Virus record (IMG/VR): IMGVR_UViG_2695420487_000018
Strand: one strand, 5' to 3'
DNA length: 15,479 bases
From: a virus
Lineage: Duplodnaviria; Heunggongvirae; Uroviricota; Caudoviricetes
The stretch's first letter is position 1. Each line of letters begins with the position of its first letter. The notes below the pieces were generated by a model, which worked only from the letters and a program-made list of their open reading frames with translations, did no database searches and was not told where the DNA came from. The translations under genes and the position numbers were made by a program. Positions 8,804 through 15,479 of the stretch are shown piece after piece.

Positions 8804-9120
8804 GTGCGGGTTATGCGGGTTATTGGGTTATCTTAGCGTGCTAACCATTTTTTATCCTTTTATATCAGCATGTTGCAAAACGCCCTGTTTATTATTTGCT
8901 CACCACATAACCCGCAAAACGCTCAAAATAACCCGCAAACGGGGTTTTTTCTGCGGGTTACGCATGACTGTCCGGTGTTACTTCAGTTATTCGCCTGCGG
9001 GTTATAATCGTGCTTTTGCGGGTTATAAATGCCCTTTTGCGGGTTACGTGCGGGTTATTGATTTCCTTTATATTCATGCGCTTAATACACTTATACACAG
9101 GATAACCCGCATAACCCGCA
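8804..9120. repeat. Iteron-type replication origin: about 12 copies of GCGGGTTA(T/C) (8 forward, 4 reverse) plus AT-rich tracts
   Basis: Forward copies at 8806, 8815, 8953, 8997, 9018, 9039, 9050 (and degenerate 8824); reverse ATAACCCGC at 8907, 8928, 9102, 9111; AT-rich 8780-8800 and 8840-8900; directly downstream of the rep gene. Confidence 0.8.
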
Positions 9121-9142: not shown

Positions 9143-11275
9143 TTAATCTTCATCATCAGGCTGGAACATCAGCACGTAAAAAACATGCTGCTTACCCCCA
9201 ATCTTGCCCAGCGCCTTTTTTTTGTATCGGCGATCGCTTCCCTTCTCCAGCATTCCGGCAGCATCCAGGGCACGCGCAAAATGCGCCGGATTAAATCCCT
9301 TCGCTATCTCACTCTCAAACACGTGCGGGAACGTGTAATAGCGCATCTCGTCATCTTCGTTGCGAATGCTCCCTTTTCTGTATCCGGCAAGCTCTTTAAT
9401 CGGTAAATCACGCTCATCTGTATTGGGGTACGGAAGGTAGCGGCTAAACCCAAACGACGACAAAAACGCCTCAGCCTGTTCAACCATCTGTTTAAATTCC
9501 CTGTTACCTGTGCCGAACTCCTTCACCCAGGCATTAAAGTTATGCTGTATCGCGTCGCGGCATTCCTGCACGACCCAGCCAGTTACATGACCGGAAAGCA
9601 CAAGCGCGGCCTCCAGTATGGCGAAACGTTCACCCACGCGGTGGACCTGCTCGCCGTAACTCTCCGGTATCAGGTTGCGCCACCGTTCGCGGCATTCCCT
9701 TACCGTGTCCTTTGCCTCCTGCTGGTGGCCTGCCAGCCATTTAACCCACTCACGACCCGCCGCCCCGTGATTTGCTGTCCAGGCATCCTTTAACGCGTCA
9801 GCATGTTCCTTACCGTTGCTGTATTCGTGAAATTTCGTGGCTTTTTCCATCGGAACGTTAAGCAGTCGGACAAGCTGCCCCGCCTTAACTTTTATCCCCT
9901 CACTTTTGAGGAATGTCTCAACGTCCATTTCTCCGGTGCTGATTGCCACCGTTCGCCAGTGTTTGATCTCCCTGTTGCCGCCATCCTTCGCCCCCTGCAA
10001 TTTCCCTGAACCGTTAAACAGCGTATAAGCAGACGTTGACACTTCCCGCGCATTTCCGGCCTGGCCTATCTCATCCAGTGGTAAAAGCCCGTCATTATGG
10101 GCCTCGGCCTCATTGGCAATACCTAACGCCGTGCCGTACCAGGTCAGCCGCTGCGCGTCCGGCTCTCCCCATAAACTTGATGCGATGTTCTGCGTGGTGG
10201 TCTTACCTGCCGATGACTGTTCGAAAAGATGCACCCCGAAGCCGTCAGCACCCACAAGGCCAATTAAAGGCGCTGCCAGTGACGTTGCCACACCCAGTAT
10301 CATTGAGGCATTACCGCCAGCCAGCCGCGCCACGCTGTCGCGCCAGCCATCCGCCGTGCCCGCCACGGAATAACCGTTAATCGCGGCGCTTTTTCCGGTA
10401 AACAGGATCGGTTTTTCAGATTCACCAATGATCGAACCGTCCGGCATGATGTACGCGCCAAAATGCCAGCCCGTTGTTGTGCTTAACTGCCATTCCTCAT
10501 GGCTTCCGCTTAACTGCATCCAGTCCGCCAGGATTGCCCTGTATTTGCCGTTGGTTGTCACGTTCAGCCCGTGATCTTTAAGTAACCGCCAGCCGTCACG
10601 GTCGCCGATACCACCACACGGGATCGCCATTGTGATGACTTTATGGTTTGCGGTTTTTTTCCAGCGCATCACGCGGTAATGCTCTTTACCGATCGTCCCC
10701 GTTCCCAGTAGTTCAAGCGGAGAACATAACCACGTCTCAGGCCGGATAATTTCGCCTGACTGCTTATCCACTTTGGGCGTTACCCAGAAAACACCATCGG
10801 CGCGACTTTCAACGCGTGGCTTTAATTCGTCATCGCTATGGCTTCCGGTATCTTTTTTCTTTACCGGAAACTCAATAACCAGACCATCAGAAAGATTCTG
10901 CCGCTCACGGGCCAGATATTCGCGCCAGTTCTCCACCTTCTGACCGTGCATTCCTTCGGGGTAAAAATTTGCGTCCTGAATATCTGCCGCCGCCAGCTTC
11001 TGACCAATCTTTTTGGTCTCCACCAAATCCAGTTCTCCGGCCTGGTACAGCCTTACGCGTTTTTTTCCATCCGGAACAATTTTCAGCGCATCAAGTTCGG
11101 CAAGCTGATTTGGCCCAAGCCACACAGGCGGAACATTATCGCCGGATGCGGGGCCATCCTGCTCCTGCCATTGTTTCGCGTGCGACCAGGCATCACTACC
11201 CGCGAAAATAATTACCTCTGTGTCTTTGTGTTTTATTCCGCGTGGCTGTTTTTTTACGTTCGGTGCCAGTTTCAT
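9143..11275 (-). CDS. Replication initiator, primase/helicase-type (P-loop NTPase; DUF927/D5-like family suspected)
   Basis: 710-aa ORF; Walker A-like FEQSSAGKTT; position immediately upstream of the iterons matches pri-rep genes of satellites. Confidence 0.8.
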   Translation of the reverse strand: MKLAPNVKKQPRGIKHKDTEVIIFAGSDAWSHAKQWQEQDGPASGDNVPPVWLGPNQLAELDALKIVPDGKKRVRLYQAGELDLVETKKIGQKLAAADIQDANFYPEGMHGQKVENWREYLARERQNLSDGLVIEFPVKKKDTGSHSDDELKPRVESRADGVFWVTPKVDKQSGEIIRPETWLCSPLELLGTGTIGKEHYRVMRWKKTANHKVITMAIPCGGIGDRDGWRLLKDHGLNVTTNGKYRAILADWMQLSGSHEEWQLSTTTGWHFGAYIMPDGSIIGESEKPILFTGKSAAINGYSVAGTADGWRDSVARLAGGNASMILGVATSLAAPLIGLVGADGFGVHLFEQSSAGKTTTQNIASSLWGEPDAQRLTWYGTALGIANEAEAHNDGLLPLDEIGQAGNAREVSTSAYTLFNGSGKLQGAKDGGNREIKHWRTVAISTGEMDVETFLKSEGIKVKAGQLVRLLNVPMEKATKFHEYSNGKEHADALKDAWTANHGAAGREWVKWLAGHQQEAKDTVRECRERWRNLIPESYGEQVHRVGERFAILEAALVLSGHVTGWVVQECRDAIQHNFNAWVKEFGTGNREFKQMVEQAEAFLSSFGFSRYLPYPNTDERDLPIKELAGYRKGSIRNEDDEMRYYTFPHVFESEIAKGFNPAHFARALDAAGMLEKGSDRRYKKKALGKIGGKQHVFYVLMFQPDDED

Positions 11276-12000: not shown

Positions 12001-12185
12001 TAATGCACCTCTTTTAATTCATACACTGCTGAAATAATGACTTGTGATAAGCCATATTCTGATGATTCGCTTCTCACCGCAGCAATAGCCGTCTGAACAT
12101 TAACAGCCTTCACATTCTGAGCGATACCAATTGTGTGGCCTAGTGGGTTAACAGCGCTGGCAAATACACGGAAGGTTTTAAGCAC
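12000..12185 (-). CDS. Hypothetical small protein (about 62 aa)
   Basis: Track ORF 12000..12215 begins at TTG; the GTG at 12185 has AGGGGG 7 nt upstream and overlaps the upstream stop. Confidence 0.4.
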   Translation of the reverse strand: MLKTFRVFASAVNPLGHTIGIAQNVKAVNVQTAIAAVRSESSEYGLSQVIISAVYELKEVH

Positions 12186-12642
12186 GGCACACCCCCTGAC
12201 GAATACGGGCGACAAAAATCAGATGTGCGTGCGGCAGCTGGGCGCGGGCTTCGCGTTCAGTGGCTGCGGTAACGGTGTAAATATCAATGCTGCTGTGGTG
12301 GCACTGCATAAAGCGCCAGACAAAGTAAGGGCGTGCGGATACAGCCATGTGAAAGGCTCCCAGATGAATTTTAAGGAGTCTCGCTACTACGCTGCTAAAC
12401 ATGGTGGCGAGACGTAACAGGGTTAGCAGACTGGTCATCTGGAAACCAGCGAGCACAAAGGCTCCCCCGTTACGCCCCGCCATAATGCGGGTATGGGTAG
12501 GTTTACGGACACAAAAAAACCGCTTATCGGATGTGGGCGGCTGTCCGCCAGATGTATTCAGGCTGCTAAACCCGGTCGCCATGTGGGCGACGGGGGAAGC
12601 ATACAGCCCCGTGATAATTTTTTGCAAGCGGTTTTTACGCAT
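12178..12642 (-). CDS. Hypothetical protein; C-terminal about 55 aa paralogous to the 12635..12907 product
   Basis: Track ORF 12178..12684; ATG at 12642. C-terminal motifs FVWRF, TEREAR, ARIRQG are shared with the upstream gene, with third-position differences (GTC/GTG, CGC/CGT). Confidence 0.45.
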   Translation of the reverse strand: MRKNRLQKIITGLYASPVAHMATGFSSLNTSGGQPPTSDKRFFCVRKPTHTRIMAGRNGGAFVLAGFQMTSLLTLLRLATMFSSVVARLLKIHLGAFHMAVSARPYFVWRFMQCHHSSIDIYTVTAATEREARAQLPHAHLIFVARIRQGVCRA

Positions 12643-12907
12643 GATGTGACCCCTGACGAATACGGGCGGCAAATACAGCAACACAACCTGACGGGCAACG
12701 GCTACGCGCTTCGCGTTCCGTCCAGGCGGTTACGTGGATGATTTGAGATTCTCCGGCACTCAGTGCCAGAAAACGCCACACAAAGGCCGTTTGTGTGTGT
12801 ACAAGGTGTGGTATATGATTTACAGCAACCATAACGGCTCCTAGTTTACGTTGTTGGTTAGAAGCCCTGCGAGTGGTAACGACACTTGCGGGGCTTTGTC
12901 TTTTCAT
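12635..12907 (-). CDS. Hypothetical small protein (65-90 aa), first gene of the leftward operon; paralog of the next gene's C-terminal domain
   Basis: ATG at 12907 (AAGG upstream) or 12832 (AGGAG 5 nt upstream); same conserved motifs as the downstream paralog. Confidence 0.5.
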   Translation of the reverse strand: MKRQSPASVVTTRRASNQQRKLGAVMVAVNHIPHLVHTQTAFVWRFLALSAGESQIIHVTAWTEREARSRCPSGCVAVFAARIRQGSHHA

Positions 12908-12923
12908 CGATTACCTTGATAAA

Positions 12924-13006
12924 GGTGTCAGCCACTATATTAGTAACGGGTGTCAGCCACGTCAATAGTGTTTTTCCGTTTTCTTGTGTGTATACTGTCA
13001 GCCACC
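12924..13006. promoter_or_regulatory. Divergent promoter/operator region: leftward promoter TTGACG-N17-TAATAT (minus strand), rightward -10 TATACT, and three direct repeats TGTCAGCCAC
   Basis: Minus-strand -35 is rc of 12960-12965 and -10 is rc of 12937-12942 with a 17-nt spacer. Repeats at 12926-12935, 12951-12960 and 12996-13005 overlap promoter elements on both strands. Confidence 0.6.
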
Positions 13007-13026
13007 TAATAACGAGGAAATCAGAT

Positions 13027-13206
13027 ATGGCAACAAAAGCAGTTAATGCAAAATCCAAAAAGCTTGAGGCTCGAGTACCACACGCAATAGCTGATGCTGT
13101 AGAAAATTTAAAGGAAGATGGCGAAAGTACAGGGCAATTTATCGTTTCGGCACTTGAAGGCGAGATCAAACGCCGCCAGCGCCGCAAGGCCAAAGAATCA
13201 GAATAA
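13027..13206 (+). CDS. Small DNA-binding protein, ribbon-helix-helix-like (59 aa); candidate regulator of the switch
   Basis: GAGGA 8 nt upstream of the ATG; pattern KKLEARVPHAIADAVENLKEDGESTGQFIVSALEGEI fits a beta-strand plus two helices; basic C-terminal tail. Confidence 0.55.
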   Translation: MATKAVNAKSKKLEARVPHAIADAVENLKEDGESTGQFIVSALEGEIKRRQRRKAKESE

Positions 13207-13248
13207 TCACTATCAGCGCCGTGGTGTGAGGTATTACGGCGCATTGCT

Positions 13249-13437
13249 ATGCAGGACAACACAATGACCGATAAAGAATTGACCAAAACATTATCACCGG
13301 CACGGAAAAGACGGCGCAGAAAGATAGAGCATGAATCAGAAAGATTCGCACCATGTGCTTTTGCCCTTGAGCAATTCCTTAAAGAGTACAGGGAAAAGCG
13401 CTCATTGCAGGTATGGCAACGAACTGAACCAGACTGA
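13249..13437 (+). CDS. Possible small basic protein (62 aa)
   Basis: ORF between the RHH-like gene and the plus-strand terminator; no convincing SD. Confidence 0.25.
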   Translation: MQDNTMTDKELTKTLSPARKRRRRKIEHESERFAPCAFALEQFLKEYREKRSLQVWQRTEPD

Positions 13438-13532
13438 TTGCATTGCCCACCAGCCTGATAGCGGCTATCATCCCCGTGCTTATGTTTGGGATCACACACA
13501 CAAACGGCGCAGCGGGTTATCTGTTCAGAAAG

Positions 13533-13560
13533 GCGGCTCCATTTCGGGGCCGCTTTTTTT
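13533..13560 (+). terminator. Rho-independent terminator of the rightward unit
   Basis: GCGGCTCC-ATTTC-GGGGCCGC (8-bp stem with one G-U) followed by TTTTTTT. Confidence 0.7.
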
Positions 13561-13706
13561 ATACCTGAAAAACCCCAATTTTGTTGTTTTTCAGTTTCAC
13601 CAGGGCGAACGAATCCCCGCCCACGTTCTGGCGTATATTCAATCTTCATGGTTATAGCTCTGTGTTCAGATGATTGATGTGTGGCGGCTGCGTGCCGCCA
13701 GCGTGA

Positions 13707-13895
13707 TTAATGAACTGCCTTGCAGCTATCCTTCCAGGCCAGAACCTCGGATAAAGACCAGCCAACGGAACGACCGCCAAGTTTACGACGTGATGGGAAT
13801 TGTCCGGCCTTTTCCAGGCGGTAGCGACACGTACGGCTAAGGCCGGTTAGTTTTTCGCATTCTTTTTCACGTATAAACCGATCAGTGCTTAACAC
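13707..13895 (-). CDS. alpA: AlpA-family transcriptional regulator (excisionase-like HTH)
   Basis: 62-aa ORF ...KECEKLTGLSRTCRYRLEKAGQFPSRRKLGGRSVGWSLSEVLAWK... matches the AlpA pattern; GTG start with AGGGGGG 6 nt upstream; sits next to int. Confidence 0.8.
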   Translation of the reverse strand: MLSTDRFIREKECEKLTGLSRTCRYRLEKAGQFPSRRKLGGRSVGWSLSEVLAWKDSCKAVH

Positions 13896-14047
13896 TATTG
13901 CCCCCCCTTTCGTTTCTTAAAGAGTCATCAGGTGTCTTATTGTGTCGTATTGTTCCCGCTAGAGTGATGAATGGCAAATATTGAGGATGTATGATTTACA
14001 GAAAATGAAACAGTAAGAATAAAATCTTTTAAATTCATGTTAATACA

Positions 14048-14094
14048 AAGGCATAAAATATTGTTTCATGCCTTTTTTCTCGCTCTTTAAAGAG
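14048..14094. other. Hairpin AAGGCAT-N13-ATGCCTT followed by TTTTCT on the plus strand, then a perfect 12-bp palindrome CTCTTTAAAGAG (14083-14094)
   Basis: Read directly from the sequence; lies between int and alpA; the strand on which it would terminate is ambiguous. Confidence 0.4.
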
Positions 14095-14169
14095 TGATTC
14101 GCTAGTGTATAAAAAACCAGTGACACATTAAAAATCAGCCACTTATAAATCTGTATGCTTTTTCGCCTC

Positions 14170-14220
14170 TTGTTCGTGGTTGTTCCACATTGTTGCTCAT
14201 TGTTGCACGTTGTATCTGTT
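14170..14220. promoter_or_regulatory. Second copy of the 25-bp dyad motif (rc AACAATGTGGAACAACCACGAACAA) within five 10-bp-phased TGTT units, upstream of alpA
   Basis: 14171-14220 reads tgttcgtggt/tgttccacat/tgttgctcat/tgttgcacgt/tgtatctgtt; one mismatch relative to the 7755-7779 copy. Confidence 0.55.
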
Positions 14221-14261
14221 CGCATATACAGTATGCGCATACTGAAAAAACACGAAAAAAA

Positions 14262-15479
14262 TTATTTTCTTCTGGCTACTGGTAGCGTGGTTACGTTTTC
14301 ATGTGTTCCCGCCAGTATCCCTAACCGCTCCGTCCACATATCCAGCGCATTGCGTTTAGCATCCAGATAACGGGAATGATTATAAACTCGCTGCATTCCT
14401 GGCATCTGGTGGCCTGTAAGCTGCTCCACGACATGCGGATCAACGCCTAAATCGTTCAGCATCGTTGTAAAGGTGCGCCGGATGTCATGCAGTGACCAGT
14501 GAGGATGATTAAGCCTCCTGTGCGCTAATCTTCCATACTGCGATACGCTGGCCTCCTGTTTCACTTCCCCCAGCAATAAGCCCGTGTGCCTGTTCTGCTC
14601 CACCAGCTGCGTGACGAACGGCAGGATCGCTTCCGGTATGGGCCGGAATATTGCGACCTTCGTTTTGCTGTGCTCCTTCGGAACGGTCCATAGCATTTCC
14701 GTAAAATCCCACTCTCCGATCTCCGATAACCTCAGTTCTACCGTTCTGGCTCCGAAGACAATCAGGAGGCGGATTAACGCGACGTAGTAAGGGGAGAATA
14801 TTTTTTTGTCCAGTGCCTGCAATAATTCGCCAAGTTCTTTGTTACTTAAGACACGTTCGCTTATATCCGGTTTTTTCCCAACGTCCGCCACGTTCAGATC
14901 GTCCAGAACGTTGCTGATTGCATAGCGCCGCCTACGGCAGAACTTAAGCGCCTGTTTGCACGCCTGTAGCACGAATCCGGCAGTAACAGGCGTTCGCTTT
15001 GCCACCTGGTCAAAACAGGCCAGCCAGTGCCGTAGCTCGCATTTATCCAGCGGCATAGCACCAATCTGCTGTATTACGTGATTATTAAGTCGCCTTTTCA
15101 GGGCGATATAATCCACGCGGTTTTCCTTTACGTAATACTCAAGCCAGTAGGTGAGCGCATCGCCAACCGTTACCGGCTTTAACGCTTCCTGTACGGTGTA
15201 ATTAAGCTCATGACGTGGATTTTTCCCCTCTGCCAGCCATGCGCGACACTGGGCGGCTTTTTCCCTGGCTGATTTCAGGCTCAGATCAGGATAACTTCCC
15301 AGCTTAATGCGTTCGGGTCGTGTCTCCCTTCCCGTTCCGGCCCTGTATGTGAAATACCAGGTCAATTTCCCTGATGTTAAATATTTCACGCTCAGGTTTC
15401 CGCCATCACTATAAAACGTGTTTTTCTCCGCTGGCTTACCATGAAGTTTCCTTAGCAAGGTATCGCTCAGTTTGTTCAT
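14262..15479 (-). CDS. int: Tyrosine site-specific integrase (P4-like, with N-terminal arm-binding domain)
   Basis: 405-aa ORF starting at the window edge; catalytic-domain motifs HDIRRTF and RVYNHSRY; N-terminus GNLSVKYLTSGKLTWYFTYR typical of arm-binding domains. Confidence 0.9.
   Translation of the reverse strand: MNKLSDTLLRKLHGKPAEKNTFYSDGGNLSVKYLTSGKLTWYFTYRAGTGRETRPERIKLGSYPDLSLKSAREKAAQCRAWLAEGKNPRHELNYTVQEALKPVTVGDALTYWLEYYVKENRVDYIALKRRLNNHVIQQIGAMPLDKCELRHWLACFDQVAKRTPVTAGFVLQACKQALKFCRRRRYAISNVLDDLNVADVGKKPDISERVLSNKELGELLQALDKKIFSPYYVALIRLLIVFGARTVELRLSEIGEWDFTEMLWTVPKEHSKTKVAIFRPIPEAILPFVTQLVEQNRHTGLLLGEVKQEASVSQYGRLAHRRLNHPHWSLHDIRRTFTTMLNDLGVDPHVVEQLTGHQMPGMQRVYNHSRYLDAKRNALDMWTERLGILAGTHENVTTLPVARRK

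Follow-up and report, generated by a model that had tools for sequence, protein, structure and literature searches.

A ribbon-helix-helix protein and its three co-varying operator sites as a candidate repressor switch in Gram-negative phage-inducible chromosomal islands

The DNA analysed here, hereafter the window, is the whole 15,479-nucleotide viral record IMGVR_UViG_2695420487_000018 (Caudoviricetes). This 15.5-kb stretch is a phage satellite, a capsid-forming phage-inducible chromosomal island (PICI) close to EcCIEDL933, and it encodes a 59-amino-acid (aa) ribbon-helix-helix (RHH) protein divergently from a leftward promoter, P_L, next to three short repeats. The positions of the repeats, and the way in which they vary together with the protein across related islands, make it likely that the 59-aa protein binds the three sites and represses P_L. 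That it is also the principal repressor of the island is a more tentative proposal, which may well not hold. The elements of the predicted switch are the following.

12925-12935, + strand: operator O1, GTGTCAGCCAC (GTG-N5-CAC), one base downstream of the leftward -10 and over the predicted leftward start
12937-12965, - strand: leftward promoter P_L, with -35 TTGACG (12965-12960), a 17-nt spacer and -10 TAATAT (12942-12937)
12950-12960, + strand: operator O2, GTGTCAGCCAC, which fills the spacer of the leftward promoter and has its last base in common with the -35
12991-12996, + strand: -10 hexamer TATACT of the rightward promoter P_R, the stretch upstream being T-rich
12995-13005, + strand: operator O3, CTGTCAGCCAC, an off-consensus copy that shares the final two bases of the rightward -10 and runs on over the predicted start of the rightward transcript
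13027-13206, + strand: gene of the RHH protein (59 aa plus stop; YlcI/YnfO family), preceded by GAGGAA; predicted DNA-reading strand residues K12, E14 and R16

The 10-mer TGTCAGCCAC is present exactly three times on the + strand (12926-12935, 12951-12960 and 12996-13005), and no fourth copy was found on either strand of the window with one mismatch allowed. The 11-base forms of the three sites are GTGTCAGCCAC, GTGTCAGCCAC and CTGTCAGCCAC. None of 300 first-order Markov simulations of the window gave any 10-mer three times within 100 bp; two copies within 100 bp were common in the same simulations (209/300). The three direct repeats beside an RHH-like gene, first noticed in a sequence-only reading of this DNA, were thus confirmed as exact copies confined to the switch. 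That reading had also described a near-consensus leftward promoter, TTGACG-N17-TAATAT, with two of the repeats lying over it. The promoter is indeed present at 12965->12937, but it matches 9/12 consensus positions and is good rather than near-consensus. Copy 2 does fill its spacer and shares one base with the -35; copy 1 lies over the predicted start but misses the -10 hexamer. The third repeat had been placed correctly at the start region of the RHH-like gene: in its 10-base form (12996-13005) it covers the predicted rightward start, 22 nt before the ATG, and shares one base with the TATACT -10.

The 59-aa protein matches the NCBIfam model NF041551 (YlcI/YnfO; 60.6 bits against a cut-off of 30, E 1e-16, residues 9-50), and an identical protein carries the YlcI/YnfO name in RefSeq. 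No described function of this family was found in the literature. The protein had no Pfam match at threshold and no match in a PDB sequence search, and neither curated RHH models nor RHH proteins of known structure matched it significantly; weak scattered matches to the RHH-type families CB_ParB_C and PSK_trans_fac were observed (E 0.03-0.04). The AlphaFold (AF2) model (pLDDT 88.8) has an extended N-terminus and helices at 19-28 and 35-58, with a GESTGQ turn preceding helix 2, and hence a strand-helix-helix topology of ~45 residues. The fold listing beside this model names AmrZ, SvtR and omega, as well as HicB, NikR and Arc. By predicted structure the fold is RHH, in agreement with the RHH-like identity proposed earlier. 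With hhalign, the probabilities for Arc and CopG were 6-11%, and the weak alignments had the same register on both templates, placing K12/E14/R16 on Q9/N11/R13 of Arc and on R4/T6/T8 of CopG, which are the base-contacting residues in the DNA complexes of those two proteins. All 88 homologues are from Enterobacterales; N7, K9, S10, E33, F38 and E46 are invariant among them, and R16 and a basic tail nearly so. No match to the protein was found by tblastn in 50,697 phage genomes.

When one genome was scanned for each species, 67 loci encoding relatives of the protein were obtained, and the data set was completed with the loci of another four proteins and with the prototype EcCICFT073. The same layout was found in ~70 related Enterobacterales islands, EcCICFT073 included. 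In most loci with enough flank, tblastn and called genes gave the order int, alpA, sometimes accessory genes, and then the RHH gene pointing towards alpA; beyond the RHH gene came a divergent operon of variable small genes (Icd-like, Ash and others), DUF4222 and a primase. The order upstream of the RHH gene is hairpin, site 1, leftward -10, site 2 abutting a TTGAx -35, a T-rich stretch, and TATACT overlapping site 3. When the best three matching 11-mers were sought in 64 Enterobacterales loci (maximum score 22), 54 loci scored 18-22, against a shuffle mean of ~14.4 and a shuffle maximum of 18, and the sites stood at fixed positions relative to the TTGAx -35 and the TATACT -10. Every one of 61 distinct upstream regions had a leftward -35 of the form TTGA(C/G/A), most of them with a TAnnnT-like -10 at 16-18 nt, and the O2 equivalent always abutted a conserved xTCAA, which is the -35 TTGAx of the - strand. 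The rightward -10 was TATACT in 43/58 loci and TATnnT or CATACT in the others, and its best -35 mostly matched 1-3 of 6 positions. Site 1 differed from site 2 by 0-1 base in 48/54 loci and was inverted in 23/52. The first base of O3 was C, differing from O2, in 46/54 loci, as O3 overlaps the rightward -10; the O3 core differed from that of O2 in 22/54. Outside the switch, the locus-specific 11-mer (at most one mismatch) was matched five times in the 616 kb of 54 loci, where ~5 matches are expected by chance.

The sites have the form GTG-N5-CAC; the N5 core varies between islands, and the three sites of one island co-vary. We examined this covariation in 50 non-redundant loci, which fall into 22 core types. 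The protein columns most informative on the core were 12 and 14 (2.32 and 2.63 of 3.79 bits), and they were the only highly variable columns wholly fixed by the core type (H(12,14|core) = 0). Helix positions of like variability were not fixed by core type, and R16 was invariant. This pattern suggests that alternate strand residues of the 59-aa protein read bases. The pairings of residues 11-17 with sites include the following.

KKLEARV: site GTGTCAGCCAC
KRFDVRV: site GTGTCGGACAC
QT(I/L)AARV: site GTGTTGAACAC
QMTTVRI: site GTGAAATACAC
QQLNARF: site GTGAATCGCAC
LQVSVRL: site GTGAACACCAC
QSVTARI: site GTGTCTTACAC
TQLASRV: site GTGCTTAGCAC
QALKARV (EcCICFT073): site GTGTGGCCCAC

Two otherwise dissimilar proteins with Q12/N14 in common had near-identical sites, GTGAATAGCAC and GTGAATCGCAC. 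The relation was also predictive in two held-out cases: for P0037 (R12/D14) GTGTCGGACAC was expected and GTGTCGGACAC was found, and for P0071 (S12/T14) GTGTCTTACAC with an inverted site 1 was both expected and found. In a DNA alignment of the window with EcCICFT073 the flanks are nearly identical, and divergence is restricted to the operators and codons 1-45. The operators and the first ~45 codons thus appear to move between islands together, as a specificity cassette that resembles the immunity region of a phage. Several genomes with more than one island carry a different type of operator and strand residues in each: X. mauleonii (L005, L027, L053 and L058), X. innexi (L012, L024 and L050) and Y. 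pekkanenii (L004, L033 and L038). Different types in co-resident islands fit an immunity-like insulation.

Other products of the islands did not follow the sites. Between the window and EcCICFT073, AlpA is 93.5% identical, the integrase 91% and the product of a 62-aa open reading frame (ORF) 100%; the RHH protein is 66% identical, with A12/K14, and the EcCICFT073 sites are GTGTGGCCCAC. The primase of locus L070 is 94% identical to that of the window, but the sites there are GTGTCGGACAC. Xenorhabdus islands, in turn, share the sites and strand residues of the window with an AlpA only ~46% identical and without an Icd-like or DUF927 match. None of AlpA, integrase, primase, the 62-aa ORF product and the Icd-like protein tracks the site type, and all five were rejected as the binder. 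With four or more core types in E. coli alone, a host factor is an unlikely binder. We also rejected a fourth operator upstream of alpA (TCAGCCAC at 14135), which is without the GTG flank, and the aligned position in EcCICFT073 is without that island's site. The earlier proposal that the RHH-like protein is an operator-binding repressor and autoregulator is supported in its core by the fold, the layout of ~70 islands, the covariation of sites with residues 12 and 14, and the two held-out predictions.

Several observations weigh against a repressor with a simple residue code. Residues 12 and 14 leave part of the core unspecified (H(core|12,14) = 0.69 bits): the proteins of L020 and L021 are both K12/S14, yet their cores are nnGGA and GCACC, respectively. 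The covariation is, moreover, confounded by physical linkage and shared ancestry. In L006, L009, L016, L028/L031 and L072 the RHH gene is kept and some or all of the sites have been lost by upstream rearrangement; such loci are probably decaying islands. P_R has no recognisable -35 (best 2/6). The centre-to-centre spacings of the sites are 25 and 45 bp, which is out of helical phase, so that cooperative binding is not obvious. Furthermore, over-expressed AlpA alone induces islands (PMC6092414; 10.1101/2025.02.11.637232), and the repressor is therefore not an absolute lock.

From the site positions, the geometry, the predicted fold and the covariation we infer a scheme of binding, repression, autoregulation and stoichiometry. 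The RHH protein specific to each island, probably as dimers, would bind the three 11-bp GTG-N5-CAC sites. O1 and O2 bracket the leftward -10 and cover the spacer and start, and their occupancy would exclude RNA polymerase from P_L. This block would silence the Icd-like and primase genes as well as the capsid and packaging genes that lie further along. O3, which differs from O2 so often at its first base and in its core, would be a weaker site, forced off consensus by its overlap with the protein's own -10, and would provide negative autoregulation when more of the protein is present. Strand residues 12 and 14 would help to read the variable 5-bp core, and the invariant R16, perhaps with an arm of N7, K9 and S10, would read the GTG/CAC flanks. 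A symmetric dimer on an asymmetric site should tolerate the inverted site 1, as omega does on its heptads. Exchange of the cassette would then give rise to many specificities that should not cross-react.

Read from right to left, the window encodes an integrase, alpA, a small-gene block, DUF4222, a DUF927 primase and then capsid, portal and terminase genes. Beyond position 12650 rightwards it is 100% identical to the tqsA-inserted island of E. coli O157:H7 strains, which is of the EcCIEDL933 type, a 15.4-kb capsid-forming PICI (10.1101/2022.09.08.507074). For the E. coli islands, ~1,400 complete genomes have a match. The features around the switch are these.

14262-15479, - strand: integrase
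13707-13895, - strand: alpA, known activator of such islands, convergent with the RHH gene (Pfam Phage_AlpA, 5e-17; role from PMC6092414 and 10.1101/2022.09.08.507074)
13531-13560, + strand: intrinsic terminator of the rightward transcript (-21.7 kcal/mol, U7 tail, z = -5.0)
13249-13437, + strand: putative gene of a basic 62-aa product, which would be the second on the rightward transcript (PHROG 21027, unknown function)
12861-12908, + strand: conserved hairpin (12861-12897) plus T-rich tail, a + strand terminator ending ~17 nt before O1, where a cis-antisense RNA would have its 3' end
12791-12826, + strand: candidate antisense-RNA promoter TTGTGT-N17-TATGAT, -10 at 12814-12819, predicted start ~12826
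12635-12832, - strand: Icd-like 1 (cell-division-inhibitor family), first gene of the leftward operon (NCBIfam NF033153, 64.7 bits; RefSeq annotation of a near-identical island)
12178-12604, - strand: P1/P4-type RNA repressor module inside the leftward operon, with a1b1 targets (12604-12555), C4 RNA (12487-12400) and Icd-like 2 (12348-12178)
9143-11275, - strand: DUF927 primase

The genes of the leftward operon are packed or overlapping, and P_L is predicted to drive Icd-like 1, the C4 module, Icd-like 2, the small genes, DUF4222 and the DUF927 primase, with the capsid and packaging genes further on. A terminator-like hairpin followed by GCGUUUUCUG lies inside Icd-like 1 at 12777-12797 (- strand), ~130 nt into the leftward transcript; it may just reflect conserved FVWRF codons. 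A 263-aa antisense ORF at 12858-13649 (- strand), which spans the operators and the RHH gene, was rejected as a gene. The antisense frame across the RHH gene is open in 16/18 related loci, the matching stretch is a RefSeq pseudogene, and the frame is probably open because the RHH gene is almost without Tyr codons. Three CTTAAAGAGT-like copies were also seen: that at 13375-13387 stands between the RHH gene and alpA, and those at 13913-13925 and 14083-14095 are upstream of alpA.

The absence of a cI-like repressor, stated in the sequence-only reading, holds for proteins; at the RNA level, however, the leftward operon contains a complete P1/P4-type C4 repressor module. The C4 RNA matches the full Rfam model RF01695 at 72.7 bits (gathering score 45); c4-a1b1 scores 45.5 bits, just below its gathering score of 46.7, and isrK 36.8 bits. 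The Shine-Dalgarno (SD)/AUG region of Icd-like 2 holds CAUCUGG, complementary by eye to the CCAGAUG of the C4 loop. In a sliding RNA-duplex scan of C4 against the operon the best value (-44.5 kcal/mol) was no better than that of shuffles (-47.9). The O157:H7 island differs from the window chiefly in this module of ~460 bp, which it lacks, as do most related loci. Matches to C4/IsrK in Gram-negative PICIs have already been reported (PMC10111431).

A second RNA layer may lie between the operators and the first leftward gene. Across 38 loci, the hairpin at 12861-12897 has a mean energy of -23.8 kcal/mol as + strand RNA vs -16.7 as - strand RNA, with 115 vs 14 G.U pairs, and 6 of its 8 consensus pairs show compensatory changes. 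The G.U asymmetry indicates a + strand structure, and a 5' leader stem of the leftward mRNA was rejected on this ground. A TAnnnT hexamer stands 42-46 nt upstream of a conserved GGTTAGA box in 36/36 loci vs 11.5% of control windows. The start codon of the first leftward gene follows this hexamer by 4-10 nt, and in the window the start codon of Icd-like 1 adjoins the predicted start at ~12826. No Rfam family matched the candidate antisense RNA. The hairpin and the hexamer suggest that a cis-antisense RNA of ~80 nt overlies the translation start (SD and start codon) of the first leftward gene, like sar of P22.

AlpA is an activator that is switched on by helper phages and is needed for induction (PMC6092414; 10.1101/2022.09.08.507074; 10.1101/2025.02.11.637232). 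Given this published route, direct relief of the RHH protein by a helper-phage factor is without support, and the title of 'master' repressor, which the sequence-only reading had used, is unproven. No AlpA-type repeats were found at P_L. A speculative link between the two regulators would be that transcription from the alpA promoter reads leftward past the terminator at 13531-13560, antisense over the repressor gene, and into the operon. Read as - strand RNA the terminator has -12.3 kcal/mol and a CUUUCUG tail, so that it is strong rightward and weak leftward; this makes AlpA-dependent read-through antisense to the repressor gene a reasonable idea. The wider proposal, which we put forward with some reserve, is that the RHH protein may both repress Gram-negative PICIs and capsid-forming PICIs and determine their immunity, the laboratory prototypes EcCICFT073 and EcCIEDL933 among them. 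It might form a bistable switch with the convergent AlpA read-through transcript, which would both silence the repressor gene by antisense and transcribe the operon, and it would use a swappable code in which residues centred on 12 and 14 are matched to the 5-bp core. If this is true, the code already gives at least 12 natural orthogonal repressor-operator pairs. An Rfam int-alpA RNA (RF02996) was seen at gathering score near int/alpA in L019, L021, L026, L040, L045 and L061; it was not found in the window.

An alternative is that the RHH protein binds the sites and serves mainly for immunity or insulation between co-resident islands, or for fine-tuning, and that the AlpA promoter, the C4 RNA and the cis-antisense RNA decide between on and off. 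The requirement for AlpA and its sufficiency when over-expressed (PMC6092414) speak for this, as do the further control layers in the window, the great diversity of specificities (22 core strings in 50 loci, with operators and 45 codons swapped as one cassette), and the different types within the genomes of X. mauleonii (four), X. innexi (three) and Y. pekkanenii (three). However, O1 and O2 lie on the core of the only recognisable promoter of the replication operon, as a primary repressor needs, and conservation reaches much further for the RHH-operator module than for the C4 module. We consider this alternative unlikely as an account of the protein's main role, and insulation and primary repression are not mutually exclusive.

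It is much less probable that the RHH protein is the antitoxin or autoregulator of a two-gene cassette with the 62-aa ORF, the sites serving mainly for autoregulation and overlapping the leftward promoter only incidentally. RHH gene and 62-aa ORF may share the rightward transcript, but the ORF is restricted to some E. coli islands and absent from other genera, whereas the RHH gene and operators are conserved in all genera. The operon thus has no conserved partner toxin gene of the kind that marks type II toxin-antitoxin systems. Two of the three sites, moreover, are on the leftward promoter and not on the RHH gene's own promoter, and the ORF of EcCICFT073 is unchanged despite its different operators. 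RefSeq does not call this ORF in the O157 island, and its standing as a real gene is uncertain.

The repeats are very improbable as binding sites of AlpA, acting as an excisionase-type activator, in place of the 59-aa protein. AlpA-family proteins do bind repeated sites and activate island genes (PMC6092414), but the comparisons given above pair nearly the same AlpA with different repeats (EcCICFT073) and a distant AlpA with the same repeats (Xenorhabdus). A separate repeat set upstream of alpA changes with AlpA instead, being AACAAC in the window and EcCICFT073 and AATATC in L069. The int-alpA spacer at 14166-14222 holds AACAAC repeats (- strand) with a phase of ~10 bp, unrelated to TGTCAGCCAC; the AlpA of L069 is only 66% identical. 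These AACAAC repeats are likely AlpA or integrase-arm sites.

Most improbable of all is that the repeats are replication-origin iterons bound by the primase/initiator: they are direct repeats within a replicative mobile element, but the 94% identical primase is paired with different repeats, and a distinct dense iteron array of different sequence lies directly downstream of the primase gene, where a PICI origin has been mapped (PMC6092414). In this array (8805-9120) TGCGGGTTAT occurs seven times (8805, 8814, 8952, 8996, 9017, 9038 and 9049) and its inverse four times (8907, 8928, 9102 and 9111); it is presumably the island's replication origin. Iterons are repeats in an origin beside the initiator gene that vary with the initiator, and the TGTCAGCCAC repeats do not behave in this way.

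The founding paper on Gram-negative PICIs left it unclear whether these islands have a global repressor (PMC6092414), and later surveys named only AlpA, MerR or Stl as regulator and called the islands essentially unidirectional (PMC10085698, PMC10111431). Literature searches on YlcI/YnfO, and on RHH with PICI, satellite or AlpA, found no description of the RHH-operator module; neither the role of the YlcI/YnfO family in Gram-negative PICIs nor the specificity cassettes are described in the literature searched. That the module occurs throughout Enterobacterales, and in both of the best-studied E. coli islands, bears on how satellites are kept silent and how AlpA awakens them. The matched series of proteins and operators, with a readable relation between a residue pair and a 5-bp core, could supply small orthogonal repressors for PICI-based delivery vehicles.

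RHH repressors that act on divergent promoters are known, and the proposed mechanism belongs with them. In function, as proposed, the RHH protein resembles Stl/Rpr of Gram-positive PICIs (SaPIs): both are island-encoded silencers divergent from, and adjoining, the replication and packaging operon. Stl/Rpr, however, are large helix-turn-helix proteins that lie beside int and are co-oriented with it, whereas the 59-aa RHH protein is encoded convergently with alpA and int. Furthermore, Stl/Rpr are inactivated by direct binding of helper-phage proteins, and the islands described here are induced through AlpA. The immI region of P1 (c4 RNA-icd-ant) and the CI RNA of P4 are alike in the Icd-like genes at the start of the operon, and the window also has the a1b1-C4-target-icd module. 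Immunity in P1 and P4 is conferred by the RNA, with no promoter-acting protein repressor; here the RNA module is optional and the RHH-operator module conserved.

Site usage is closest to that of omega of pSM19035, which, like CopG of pMV158, represses from short, non-palindromic, promoter-proximal sites in direct or inverted orientation. One omega dimer binds each heptad, and we assume the same for the 59-aa protein on its sites. The omega heptads form contiguous arrays of 7-10 units, whereas promoter elements lie between the island 11-mers; omega has a further role in plasmid partition, for which the island has no genes. The logic of the switch is closest to that of P22 immI (Mnt/Arc, P_ant/P_mnt, sar), in which small self-regulating RHH repressors are likewise divergent from the repressed promoter with operators on the promoter cores. 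Tetramers bind each P22 operator, a single 21-bp palindrome, whereas the island switch has three distinct 11-bp sites spaced by 25 and 45 bp, of which one is often inverted. P22 represses an antirepressor, and the island operon holds satellite replication and packaging genes. The P22 repressors have no significant sequence similarity to the 59-aa protein (hhalign probability 10%), but Arc has the same strand-residue register, and sar over ant has its likeness in the candidate antisense RNA over the ribosome-binding site of the first repressed gene.

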